A stretch of DNA of 64,000 bases from Nitrosopumilus sp. Its GTDB lineage: Archaea > Thermoproteota > Nitrososphaeria > Nitrososphaerales > Nitrosopumilaceae. Position numbers and translations under genes: made by a program. Shown in pieces: positions 33,434-57,910 of the stretch; the first letter of the stretch is position 1; every line of letters begins with the position of its first letter. The notes under the pieces are model-generated. The model ran no database searches and was not told the DNA's origin. It worked only from the letters and a program-made list of their open reading frames with translations. The stretch is from contig OZ242186.1 in assembly GCA_965205675.1 (NCBI GenBank), forward strand, positions 448,001 through 512,000, in the 5' to 3' direction.

Positions 33434-34432
33434 ATGGCAAAAACATGGAAAGATTCCGATATCAGTCTTGATCCTATTAAAGATCAAATCGTTGCTGTAA
33501 TTGGTTATGGAATTCAGGGTGATGCACAAGCAAACAACATGAAAGACTCTGATCTTAATGTGATAATTGGCCTAAACGAAGGAGGTAATAGCTGGAAAAA
33601 GGCAGAAGATGACGGTCACAAAGTAATGTCTGTTGTAGATGCAACAAAACAAGCAGATATTGTTCACATATTGATCCCTGATATGATTCAAGGCCAAGTA
33701 TACAAAGATGAAATTGAACCCAATCTTTCAAAAGGAAAAGCATTGTCATTTTCTCATGCAGCTGCAATCTATTGGAAATGGATTGAAGCACCAAGCAATG
33801 TTGATTTAATCATGATTGCACCAAAGGGACCTGGTTCCAAAGTTCGAGAAACATATCTTGATAATTTTGGCACTCCTGCAATTGTTGCAGTTGAACAAGA
33901 TTTTACCGGAAAAGCTTGGGATAGGACACTAGGAATTGCAAAAGCAATTGGAAGTGCAAGAGCTGGATTAATCAAAACTACTTTTAAAGAAGAAGTGGAA
34001 ACTGATTGGTTTGGTGAGCAAGCAGATCTTTGTGGTGGAGCCGCTTCTATGGTAACAAACGCATTTGAGACTCTTGTTGAAGGCGGATATCAGCCAGAAA
34101 TTGCATACTTTGAAGTTTTACATGAACTCAAACTCATCGTAGATATGATTCAAAGATATGGAATCAATGGAATGTGGAGACGTGTAAGTGAAACTGCACG
34201 ATATGGTGGACTAACACGTGGACCAATGGTTATGGATACTGTAAGTAAAGCAAACATGAAAAAAGTTCTTACCATGATTCAAGATGGCACATTCAACAAT
34301 GAGTGGATTTCTGAATATCAGAAAAATGGTAAAGATGCATTTGATAAATACATGAAAGAATATGACGAACACCAAATTGAAAAAGTTGGTAAAGAAATGC
34401 GTAAAATGATGTGGCCTGATTCCACAGAGTGA
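33434..34432 (+). CDS. ilvC: Ketol-acid reductoisomerase
   Basis: IGYGIQG, APKGPG, TDWFGEQ, EVLHELKLIVD, SETARYG. Confidence 0.97.
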   Translation: MAKTWKDSDISLDPIKDQIVAVIGYGIQGDAQANNMKDSDLNVIIGLNEGGNSWKKAEDDGHKVMSVVDATKQADIVHILIPDMIQGQVYKDEIEPNLSKGKALSFSHAAAIYWKWIEAPSNVDLIMIAPKGPGSKVRETYLDNFGTPAIVAVEQDFTGKAWDRTLGIAKAIGSARAGLIKTTFKEEVETDWFGEQADLCGGAASMVTNAFETLVEGGYQPEIAYFEVLHELKLIVDMIQRYGINGMWRRVSETARYGGLTRGPMVMDTVSKANMKKVLTMIQDGTFNNEWISEYQKNGKDAFDKYMKEYDEHQIEKVGKEMRKMMWPDSTE

Positions 34433-34554
34433 CTCATCATTTTTGTTGTATCCCAAAACCAATTCGTCTCTTATTCCGCATCTAATTCCAGTAGATAGGA
34501 AAGTGCTACCCAACATATCTATGTGAAATCTTTAAAAACATTTACACTCTTTTG

Positions 34555-34735
34555 CAACACATGAGAATGGCTACCGCTCGAGATGATCCCATTCATTTTC
34601 AAAAGATGAAACCGGACACATATCTATTCGAGGATCTCCCTCAGTACCATTCTTCATCCATTTATCAGAACCATGCCGCAGTTACAAAACGAGGATCTCC
34701 CTCAATATGTTTAACGAGGATTATAGTTCTGATCA
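34555..34735 (-). ncRNA. Putative bridge/seekRNA of the IS110 element
   Basis: Two stem-loop domains; stem ATCAGAACTAT/ATGGTTCTGAT; duplicated hairpin TGAGGGAGATCCTCG; homologous co-varying copy at 57716-57840. Confidence 0.6.
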
Positions 34736-34745
34736 TAATGTTTCA

Positions 34746-35747
34746 TTATGCATTTTTGATGCACTGGTAAAATGTCATGTTGTTTTTTAACATCCAGTAA
34801 ATTATTCTCAACAGTTTGGATGCTGCTGCCACTGCAGCTTTTGATGTCCCCCTCTTTTTTGCAAGACGTTTGTAAAAATTTGTAATGGTGCTGTTTTTTG
34901 CATATCTTACATGAGAATGTACTGTCTCCACCAGAACCCAGCGTAACATGCTACTTCCTCTTCTTGTTATGGAACCATGGCGTATGGTGTCAGCTGAGTT
35001 TCTAACGGATGGTACAATTCCTGCATATGAACACAGTTTGTGAGAATCTGAAAATCTTTCGATATTGTCAATTTCAGAGGATATGGTTAATGCAGTAAAT
35101 CTTCCAACACCAGGTATTGATTCTAAGAGTTGTGCATTAGAATCATGTTTTAGAGCATCCTTGATTCTCATGTCTGACTCTGCGATTCTATCATTGATTG
35201 ATATTATCATCTTGAGATATCCATCTATTCGATAGTCATCTAATCCCAACAGTTTGTGCACACATGAATCAGAAAATGCAGTTCCTGGTATCTTGATTGC
35301 ATTTTGTAAGGTTATACTGTGAATCAAATTTTTCATCCTTGTCCTGTTGCGGACTAGTTTGGTTCTATATCTCACCAGTTGTCTTGTTTGCACGGTATCT
35401 TTTTCTGGTACATGACAAGATGAGATGTATCCTCCTCTTAGCAAATCTGCCAAGATGTGAGCATCAATCTTGTCAGTTTTTTTCTTTGATGCTGCAATTG
35501 CTTTTGTGTGATATGGGTTTGATAGTATTACATCAAATCCTAGTTCGTCTCGCAGAAACCTAAACACGCCATACCAGACAGATGATGATTCCATTACACA
35601 TTTTGAGTTTTTTGGGATTGCAGAAAATACTTTTTTGATATCCTCTCTGGTGTTTGTAATTTTTTCATTGAATAATGTATGTCCTTTATCATCCATTGTT
35701 TCGACCTGTAAGAATTCTTTGTGCAAATCAATTCCGACATAGGTCAT
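34746..35747 (-). CDS. IS110 DEDD recombinase/transposase
   Basis: YVGIDLHK, VMESS, KTDKIDA, SIPGVG, YAGIVPSVRNSA; start MTYVGID (frame open to 35855). Confidence 0.95.
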   Translation of the reverse strand: MTYVGIDLHKEFLQVETMDDKGHTLFNEKITNTREDIKKVFSAIPKNSKCVMESSSVWYGVFRFLRDELGFDVILSNPYHTKAIAASKKKTDKIDAHILADLLRGGYISSCHVPEKDTVQTRQLVRYRTKLVRNRTRMKNLIHSITLQNAIKIPGTAFSDSCVHKLLGLDDYRIDGYLKMIISINDRIAESDMRIKDALKHDSNAQLLESIPGVGRFTALTISSEIDNIERFSDSHKLCSYAGIVPSVRNSADTIRHGSITRRGSSMLRWVLVETVHSHVRYAKNSTITNFYKRLAKKRGTSKAAVAAASKLLRIIYWMLKNNMTFYQCIKNA

Positions 35748-35876
35748 GGGTTTTGTCTTTCTAGTCCTAATGATTTTCTTTGGCTTTTTCTTGGAGATGT
35801 ATCTTTTAGAAACTATAGAATCAGCAGTACCATCTAAATTTCGTTGTTTATTCACATATGGTTACTCTCTAACATA

Positions 35877-36620
35877 AGTTCGTCAACCATCCTCTCGTTG
35901 CATATACTTGAGAATGTCTAAATTGAATCGTCTGGTTCTGTAATATCTGGAGATATTATTTTTCAGATTACTCAGAGATGACAGATATTGTGACACCAAC
36001 AAATTGTATTTTCCTGGGCTTCCATACTTCCTCAACTGCATTGAACTGTGGTGAGTCTTTTGAAAACCAATTCAATAGAATATCATCTGTATTCTCATCA
36101 AGATATTTTTGTACTAGTTTTGATCTGTGTTGTGGTGCTCAGTCTACATAGACTAGAATCTTGCCAAACTTTCTGTGCAATTCCTTTAGATAATCCAAAA
36201 AACAGTATTGATCAAATTTTTCATATTGTCTGAATAATTGCCTGCCGTCATGAGTCAGTGCATCAAAAATGATTGTTTTTTGATGTGTTCCATTTGCCAA
36301 AATGATTGGACATGTTCCTTTCTTTATCGCCCATCTTTTTTCTAAATATTGCATCTGTAGTAAAGATGGACTCGTCTTGTGATAGTATGGTAAAGCATTC
36401 TTCTATTTTTGAAGCAATTTGTTCTTTGGAGTTTTTTTTAAAACCAGAGTTTTTCCTCTGGTGTTGCAGAATTAACAAATCTTTTTGCTGCAACCTTTGA
36501 AACAAATCCTCATTTGTGTAATAATTGATACCCATGAACCTCATAATATCTTATTCCCGATTTTTCATAAATTAAATTTATCACTTGTTTTGCACTCCAG
36601 CCTGACTGGTTTTCTGCAAT
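35877..36620 (-). mobile_element. IS630-family transposase remnant (frameshifted)
   Basis: ILSQDESIF, DGRQLFRQY, VYVD*APQH, SPQFNAVEEVW, ISRYYRTRRFNLDILKYMQREDG*. Confidence 0.8.
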
Positions 36621-36765
36621 TTGTAGTTGGATGTTGACTGGTTTCTTTTTTGGTTTGTTTATTGTTATATTTTTTTGTAACTTTATCCTTTAAACACTAT
36701 CCGTTAACCTTCTACCAATTTTTGTTATTAGACAGATTAATAGGCTCATTTTAGGCACAAATTTC

Positions 36766-54344: not shown

Positions 54345-54432
54345 ATGTTGTACTCTGATATTTTCTTCGTTTTATACCTATTTTGAGCATATTTGGCGTT
54401 AGGTTAATAGATGAGAATTTGACACAAAATTT

Positions 54433-54549
54433 AAGCCGGCCATAGCGTTAGGGTGCGACCCAATCCCATTCCGAACTTGGAAGTCAAACCTAACGTCGCT
54501 GTTGTGTTACTAAGATGCGAGAGCTCTTGGGAAGCAACAGTGCTGGCAT
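54433..54549 (+). rRNA. rrf: 5S rRNA (stand-alone)
   Basis: GCCGGC...GCTGGC terminal helix, ACCCAATCCCATTCCGAACTTGGAAGTCAAACC conserved 5S motif, GC-rich. Confidence 0.92.
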
Positions 54550-54596
54550 TTTCTACTTTGCAATCAATCTTTTAATATTGAATTACTTGGATTCAT

Positions 54597-57149: not shown

Positions 57150-57298
57150 TTGTAAATTCAACTGCTATTGAGGAAAAACTCTGGTTTAAAAAAAATCTAA
57201 AAAGAAAATAACTTTAAAAATAGCAAAAAATGTTTACATCTCTTGTACAGGATTGAGTCCATCTTTACTGCATATACAATATCTAGAAAAAAGATGGA
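57150..57298 (+). mobile_element. IS630 fragment homologous to the 36330-36470 remnant
   Basis: Shared gaggaaaaactctggttt(t)aaaaaaaa ... gagtccatctttact ... tagaaaaaagatgg. Confidence 0.75.
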
Positions 57299-57910
57299 CG
57301 GAATCAAAATCACTGGTGTCACGTTCACTGAAATATACTACAGAAGACTCAAGACACTAGGAGATTCTAGAATGGATAGATTCCTACGACAGATAAGTTA
57401 TTTGAATCTGTAGATTGCAGAGATTAATTCTAAAGTATATGCGATTGTAAAGACCAATCCTGATATAATACTAATAAACTCAATTCTTGGAATTGGTGAT
57501 TATTCTGCAATAATGACATCATCAGAAATTACAGATATTGAAAGATTCAACGATTCTCACAAGTTGTGTGCATATACAGAAGATGTGCCATCAGTTAGAA
57601 ATTTTGTTGATACCATACATCATGGTTTTATCACAAAACAAGGTTGGTGTATCAAAAATACTATGGGCGATTTATTGGATGCTAAAGGAGATGTGAGAGT
57701 TTGTGGAAAATTATAGTTAGGACTGCAAGTCGCGTTAAAATCTAGAGAGACAAGGCCTCGTCTGGTAACTGCAAACAATCCTAACGAAGAGATGAAGATA
57801 GCATTGAGGATATGAGCTTCATATGGATATATGTCTGCATATTTTTTGTTTGGAATCATTCTCTAATGTTTGAAAAGAGAGAAAACGTATAAAAATAATT
57901 TGCATGTATA
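57299..57910 (+). mobile_element. Degenerate IS110 copy (3' half plus non-coding end)
   Basis: SSEITDIERFNDSHKLCAY...PSVRN..DTIHHG.IT and IYWMLK match the 34746-35747 transposase; downstream end homologous. Confidence 0.85.

Follow-up and report, generated by a model that had tools for sequence, protein, structure and literature searches.

Does the non-coding DNA behind an IS110-family recombinase gene in a Nitrosopumilus genome encode a guide RNA and, if so, which DNA does each part of that RNA read? The gene lies on the minus strand of a 64,000-nt stretch (the whole of which we call the window) of a complete, single-contig genome of 2.01 Mb. Bridge RNAs, or seekRNAs, are established for bacterial IS110 and IS1111 elements (PMC11208160, PMC11187229), and Durrant et al. 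2024 report predicting them for 93.0% of the IS1111 entries in ISfinder (PMC11208160). Archaeal recombinases of the IS110 family are also known, 662 of them in one preprint (10.1101/2024.06.21.599552). A first-pass annotation of the window, made from its letters alone, had proposed that a structured RNA is encoded 3' of the gene, its scaffold conserved and its guide loops variable. From comparison of the sequence with its relatives we conclude that the 3' region of this element, which belongs to a subfamily that we term G1, very probably encodes a bridge RNA or seekRNA that has two internal-loop domains and is at least about 120 nt long.

The ends of the element were fixed by aligning its copies together with their flanks, using three full copies and one 5'-truncated copy, all 99% identical. 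The parts that the following sections refer to are these:

34517-35865, minus strand: complete IS1111-type element of subfamily G1, 1349 bp including the left crossover dinucleotide GT (35864-35865)
35851-35863, minus strand: left end, made up of the 5-nt extension AACCA (35859-35863) and then the sub-terminal inverted repeat TATGTGAA (35851-35858)
34746-35855, minus strand: DEDD recombinase gene, open frame of 369 aa
34517-34527, minus strand: right end, the inverted repeat TTCACATA (34520-34527) followed by GAT (34517-34519), of which the last two bases are the crossover dinucleotide
34509-34516, minus strand: right flank, ATGTTGGG, the right half of the target site of the window copy, with five consecutive pairs to the guide

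The arrangement of the left end, an extension and then a sub-terminal repeat, is the same at related loci, and CACAT[A/G]GAT terminates all 38 distinct right-end tails. The first-pass annotation had called the element IS110/IS1111, and the layout is IS1111-like. The 8-bp repeat TATGTGAA/TTCACATA is set in from both ends of the element, the IS1111 definition being sub-terminal inverted repeats of 7-17 bp (PMC11208160). The longer non-coding part lies downstream of the gene, where an estimate of about 230 nt becomes 229 nt (34517-34745, minus strand), against about 116 nt upstream if the ATG at residue 37 is the start. Within the RNA, the match to the target's top strand comes 5' of the match to the bottom strand.

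The recombinase carries both domains of the IS110 family (Pfam PF01548, 1.3e-28, and PF02371, 1.3e-22) and scores 249 bits against the NCBIfam model NF033542, 'IS110 family RNA-guided transposase', for which the cut-off is 140. Among solved structures in the PDB it matches ISCro4 (E = 1.4e-12) and IS621 (E = 2.3e-12). The RNA is thereby placed in the long non-coding end of an element whose recombinase combines a DEDD (RuvC-like) with a Transposase_20 domain. Translation probably begins at the ATG at residue 37 (~35747) and not at the listed GTG, since the GTG sits within the left inverted repeat; the alignment of homologues to the recombinase begins at about residues 25-39. A perfect 7-bp hairpin extends over the stop codon (34734-34750, minus strand), immediately 5' of the RNA, and is present in G1 only.

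The predicted RNA core begins 12 nt past the stop codon and folds into two domains, with a short U run 3' of the second:

34614-34733, minus strand: predicted bridge RNA core with two domains, 121 nt including the G at 34734, from the minimum free energy (MFE) fold, covariance model R1 and covariation
34664-34733, minus strand: domain 1, putative target-binding loop, with an outer stem, a middle helix, an inner GUUA/UAAC helix, an internal loop and a cap hairpin
34614-34659, minus strand: domain 2, putative donor-binding loop, with a GGAUG/UGUCC stem, an internal loop and a cap hairpin

Two domains had been described in the first pass, and the helices named there for domain 1 are present, namely the outer stem (34723-34733/34664-34674), the GTTA/TAAC helix (34712-34715/34681-34684) and the cap hairpin (34690-34704). 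A 15-mer reported to occur twice proved to be the cap hairpins themselves, at 34629-34643 in domain 2 and at 34690-34704 in domain 1. The extent given for the RNA, 34555-34735, stands for the core at 34614-34733; positions 34555-34613 are non-coding but fall outside the modelled core. Folding of a 231-nt stretch gave an MFE of -63.1 kcal/mol (z = -2.45), with 2 of 200 shuffles as good, and the 121-nt core alone returned the two-domain consensus fold at -30.6 kcal/mol.

It had also been proposed that a second copy of the element in the same window supplies covariation. A homologous RNA is indeed present, and the alignment recovers both its stem (57716-57725/57776-57785) and the shared motifs in the same order; the element that carries it is not the same one, however, but a decayed member of a sister subfamily, G2, the recombinases of the two being about 59% identical.

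57420-57899, plus strand: G2-type remnant, comprising the C-terminal part of the recombinase (PF02371, 2.2e-4), the RNA and the decayed right end, which stops at 57899
57713-57854, plus strand: homologous predicted bridge RNA of this decayed element (model R1, 139.8 bits, E = 2.2e-27)

Folded alone, the remnant RNA is no better than its shuffles (z = -0.28). The evidence from two sequences is therefore weak by itself, and support for the fold comes from 60 distinct homologues. The first-pass annotation had suggested collecting homologues and building a covariance model. In the resulting alignment the predicted partners pair in 96.3% of 1693 cells, against 88.0% in shuffled alignments and 38-44% when the partner columns are slid. 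Double changes occur at 20 of the 30 pairs, namely at 15 of the 20 pairs that make up helices 1-3 (domain 1) and at five of the ten that make up helices 4-5 (domain 2), and they fill 157 cells, compared with 34.6 +/- 6.3 after shuffling (0 of 500 shuffles reach the observed count). As these counts were made on an alignment fitted to the structure, 23 diverse members were tested again with MAFFT and RNAalifold without fitting to the model. This brought back the outer stem and the middle helix as well as the domain 2 stem and the two cap hairpins, with 13 of 23 pairs compensatory. The scaffold is thus conserved, as had been claimed. Several of the helix pairs are predominantly G.U, which on the opposite strand would be A.C; the fold is therefore restricted to the recombinase-sense strand, which favours RNA over duplex DNA.

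An alternative outer stem for domain 2, in which GAUGAA pairs with a UUCAUC further 3', was also considered; judged by eye it fits G1 and a third subfamily, G3, though not G2, and it was rejected in favour of GGAUG/UGUCC, which both RNAalifold and the pair counts prefer. Searching the whole window with Rfam 15 at the gathering score matched only a 5S rRNA gene (54432-54551, plus strand; RF00001, 80.5 bits), and relaxing the search to E <= 10 added two chance snoRNA matches of 14-17 bits, where the cut-off is 50.

How widely the RNA accompanies the recombinase was followed from the protein. The search returned 1151 relatives at E <= 1e-3, and a scan of one genome per species gave 184 encoding stretches, from which 80 loci were kept. 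All 80 come from assemblies of Nitrosopumilaceae (Nitrosopumilus and Cenarchaeum), one of the records being labelled only 'bacterium', and every relative fetched belongs to this family, in keeping with the earlier description of the system as thaumarchaeal. In 75 of the 80 loci, model R1, built from eight variants within the window genome, places the RNA immediately behind the gene on its 3' side; of the five misses, three are cut off by a contig end, one concerns a truncated gene and one is unexplained. The same model gives 30 matches in the genome of the window itself and detects the RNA in 17 of 151 sampled genomes of the family, representing 8 of 27 genera. No match was obtained in 131 sampled genomes from other families of the phylum, a result that says little about distant bridge RNAs because the model is narrow.

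The internal loops are where a bridge RNA would hold its guides, and four strands were compared with the DNA at and around the ends of the elements:

34705-34715, minus strand: candidate right-target guide, formed by the 5' strand of the loop in domain 1 and continuing into the inner helix
34684-34689, minus strand: candidate left-target guide UUUU with core guide GU, formed by the 3' strand of the loop in domain 1
34644-34651, minus strand: candidate right-donor guide, the 5' strand of the domain 2 loop, in which AUGGU pairs with ACCAT of the left-end extension
34622-34627, minus strand: candidate left-donor guide with core, AUAGAU, the same six bases that close the right end

The 5' strand of domain 1 is complementary to the DNA immediately to the right of the element. 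Over 77 unique guide/flank events with 40 distinct guides, the Watson-Crick runs have a mean length of 5.96 (median 7), against 2.59 (median 2) in 5540 mismatched pairings, and permuting the guides among families never reached the observed value (0 of 2000). Among close relatives a changed guide base is met by a changed flank base, as in L037 compared with L044 and L082 compared with L096. The 3' strand repeats the four bases to the left of the element together with the crossover dinucleotide. Identity over these four bases averages 2.54, against 1.01 when permuted (0 of 5000), and the variable first base of the core dinucleotide, which precedes T, is the same in the guide and at the left junction in 51 of 54 events. 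Both halves of the target-reading loop and its core therefore follow the insertion site across the family, the exception being the left half in G1 itself, to which we return below.

In domain 2 the comparison is with the ends of the element, a role that the first-pass annotation had not given it. The 3' strand has the form AU[A/G]GAU, and its A/G variant agrees with that of the right end in all 25 distinct combinations that can be read. The 5' strand forms five of five pairs with the left-end pentamer in 13 of 23 distinct combinations and four of five in a further nine (permutation, 0 of 5000), which we regard as modest evidence only, given the low diversity of the left-end extensions. The earlier proposal of variable guide loops is therefore supported, domain 1 varying with the flanking target DNA and domain 2 with the ends of the element.

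Where exactly strands would be exchanged became apparent from the sister subfamilies. The window genome holds, besides G1, the subfamilies G2 and G3 with about 9-12 copies each, as well as single variants; their recombinases are about 59% (G2) and about 57% (G3) identical to that of the window and all have a homologous 3' RNA. For G2 we identified uninterrupted targets, two exact 34-nt sites in the same genome in which AT is present once, whereas it stands on both sides of an inserted element. At the G2-type remnant in the window, seven of the eight bases of the right flank, from 57901, pair with its own guide when compared by eye. For G3 the right flank in nine of nine copies is the left-end repeat of another element, G2 in eight cases and G1 in one, giving tandem G3-G2 units. 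The left junction fits the same site in eight of the nine (six G2-type, two G1-type), the remaining copy being without a left end. Nested examples are found at G000 C1:996473-998887 and, in the window genome, at C1:953098-954612, and the left end that G3 targets is intact in five other G2 copies. The guides in the G3 target loop read exactly this sister left-end site. From the G2 empty sites and the G3 insertions it follows that the crossover dinucleotide reads AT at the right end; at the left junction it is N-T, with N set by the target. We had previously considered whether the five variable bases that adjoin the element on its left belong to it or represent a 5-bp duplication, and dropped both readings because the two-base core model fitted both G2 and G3.

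G3 thus uses one fixed insertion position in the terminal repeat of other mobile elements. The elements that it enters are sisters from its own IS family, and its choice of site is explained by guide bases that can be read directly in its RNA. We see an even chance that the genome houses a small ecosystem of RNA-guided elements reprogrammed against each other, in which the G3 target loop is directed against the left-end repeat of its sisters. A complete promoter box of archaeal type at the right end of every one of these elements would then let the system stand alone in an archaeon and make it a candidate for a programmable recombinase native to ammonia-oxidising archaea. The tandem G3-G2 units may still be mobile as a whole, because the donor-recognition bases of the sister remain at the outer edge. 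All eight full G3 copies carry a frameshift in the recombinase frame just after the third and fourth catalytic acidic residues (G000 C1, e.g. 996300-997950), whereas G3-like elements in a sister genome (L079, L089, L099) align in one piece. Possible explanations are a mutation common to the copies, which would then be mobilised in trans or within a composite unit, and a systematic error of the assembly. At another locus, L040, the right flank from position 2664 onwards resembles the 3' strand of domain 2 of its own subfamily, which suggests that this element may have inserted into the RNA gene of another copy.

Read together with IS621 and ISEc11, these relations suggest how the system may work. 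Domain 1 would read the target DNA. Domain 2 would read the donor, which arises when the right and left ends are joined in the excised circle; the last six bases of the right end are matched by its 3' loop strand, and the left-end extension pairs with its 5' strand. Strand exchange at the dinucleotide would then be the work of the DEDD/serine recombinase, attached to the conserved stems and to the pair of near-identical cap hairpins. What we observe directly is how the sequences relate and covary; the steps of transcription, protein binding and catalysis are carried over from IS621 and ISEc11 on grounds of homology. A search for sequencing runs that contain this sequence listed none of RNA.

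It is possible to assign less to the RNA. Domain 1 could be the sole guide, as in a target-seeking seekRNA, with domain 2 acting as a protein-binding or stabilising module whose likeness to the ends reflects shared descent or gene conversion, the protein recognising the ends via the sub-terminal repeats. The 82-nt seekRNA of ISEc11 supports transposition, and the matches that we found described for it are to the target only (PMC11187229); the low diversity of the left ends and the nine of 23 combinations with one mismatch also point this way. We nevertheless consider such a division of labour unlikely. The agreement of the A/G variant of domain 2 with the right end extends across deep branches, domain 2 shares the loop geometry and the cap hairpin of domain 1, and IS621 is described as reading its donor with just such a second loop (PMC11208160).

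Two further explanations dispense with a guide altogether. That the region lies inside the right end, where many insertion sequences have protein-binding sites, would suit an action at the level of DNA, in which recombinase-binding sites near the terminus are what matters and the RNA fold is a by-product. We regard this as highly improbable, as the helices are kept by compensatory changes, their predominantly G.U pairs would be impossible on the complementary strand or in duplex DNA, and the loop bases track flanking DNA that lies outside the element. Less credible still is a 3' UTR element of the recombinase mRNA, whether a terminator, a stability element or a translational regulator, without guide function. 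The proximity of the RNA to the stop codon, the hairpin that spans this codon and the U run after domain 2 would all be at home in such an element, yet covariation with insertion sites or with the ends of the element is not expected of one. The two-domain bridge RNA is thus the reading that we prefer.

G1 itself fits this bridge RNA model less closely than its relatives do. The right-target runs at its four copies are 5, 3, 8 and 4 bp, the right flank of the window copy pairing over five bases only, and the left guide UUUU matches between none and two of the four bases at the left flanks observed in the window genome and in a sister genome. The G1 element of the sister assembly (L031, L032, L035; 99% identical) differs at one base of the right-target guide (34705-34711), with C in place of the U found here, which looks like a natural retargeting step caught in progress. 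Pairing by hand, two of the four G1 right flanks are accommodated better by the sister guide, which we regard as the older, or by U.G wobble on the present guide, while a third is a perfect fit to the present guide over eight bases. At some right junctions there are one or two extra bases, for which a strict two-base crossover does not account.

An uninterrupted target for G1 was sought in three ways. Joined flanks compared with the whole genome, allowing up to three mismatches, gave no match. Contigs from four DNA runs over 33900-36700 consisted of short pieces, with none spanning the element and no empty site among them; loose contig ends at 34513 belong to related elements adjoining a G2-type left end. 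Mapping the flanks of the sister-genome copies onto the window genome gave no clean target either, and we take the junction of one sister copy to be rearranged, because its left flank sits in another repeat that continues differently. The left flank of the sister-genome copy L031 is about 90% identical to a further repeat family of at least 400 bp that occurs at about 17 places on G000 C1 (e.g. 212493-212888 and 486823-487221).

How does the system compare with those described previously? It resembles the IS1111 seekRNAs of ISEc11, ISPa11, ISKpn4 and ISPst6 (Siddiquee et al. 2024, PMC11187229) in having the RNA 3' of the gene and sub-terminal repeats, in its 7-nt left extension by the Hall-lab convention, in the lack of any duplication beyond the shared core, and in relatives whose natural retargeting comes from changes in the loops while the stem is conserved. 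In the order of its guides, the one complementary to the target's top strand lying 5' of the one for the bottom strand, it likewise agrees with the IS1111 group and is the reverse of IS621 (PMC11187229, PMC11208160). It differs from the IS1111 seekRNAs studied in that account in its archaeal host, a member of the Nitrosopumilaceae, and in a clear second internal loop that matches both ends of the element. In this last respect it resembles the bridge RNA of IS621 (Durrant et al. 2024, PMC11208160), which likewise has two internal loops, target first and donor second, a longer 5' and a shorter 3' guide in each loop and a core dinucleotide read by the guides; the recombinases have the same two domains. 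The IS621 RNA, in contrast, is described as lying in the left end, 5' of the gene, and its core is CT, whereas here the RNA is in the right end and the core reads AT there but N-T at the left junction (PMC11208160). For many IS1111 orthologues Durrant et al. place the donor bases in a multi-loop, unlike the simple internal loop found here (PMC11208160).

The right end holds one more conserved feature:

34530-34538, minus strand: conserved A/T box at a distance of 14-21 nt from the right end, with a run of purines before it

Seven consecutive positions of this box are A or T without exception in all 38 distinct right-end tails. Its resemblance to archaeal promoters makes it a candidate outward-facing promoter, which would drive the recombinase gene once the ends are joined in the circle and, in integrated copies, would also read into the flanking DNA. 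ISEc11 is described as having a bacterial promoter split into -35 and -10 parts at the junction, which differs from the A/T box at the right end here.

A bridge RNA in Nitrosopumilaceae would be a case of a known mechanism and not surprising in principle, and it appears well supported by the comparison. Our literature search found no paper describing one in Nitrosopumilaceae or Thaumarchaeota, though archaeal ISfinder entries may be among the per-element predictions tabulated in the supplements to Durrant et al. and Siddiquee et al. The experimental work on RNA-guided IS110/IS1111 recombination that we found concerns bacterial elements only, and this locus, together with some 40 relatives reprogrammed in nature, indicates that Nitrosopumilaceae follow the same logic. 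Together these elements provide a covariance model together with defined ends, a defined core and defined guide positions, and form clean natural data on the retargeting of bridge RNAs, including retargeting against sister elements. No established genetic system is known for ammonia-oxidising archaea. If there is none, a native, compact and programmable recombinase that would already be at work in these cells, under an archaeal-looking promoter, would be a sensible starting point for one.

Immediately beyond the left end of the window element lies a decayed repeat with broken frames (35866 to ~36640, minus strand), which we take to be IS630-like; a Pfam search with two of its frames returned no family. 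Its 98-nt end has at least ten further copies in the genome at 91-96% identity, and a fragment related to the same repeat is found at ~57197-57330, beside the G2-type remnant.
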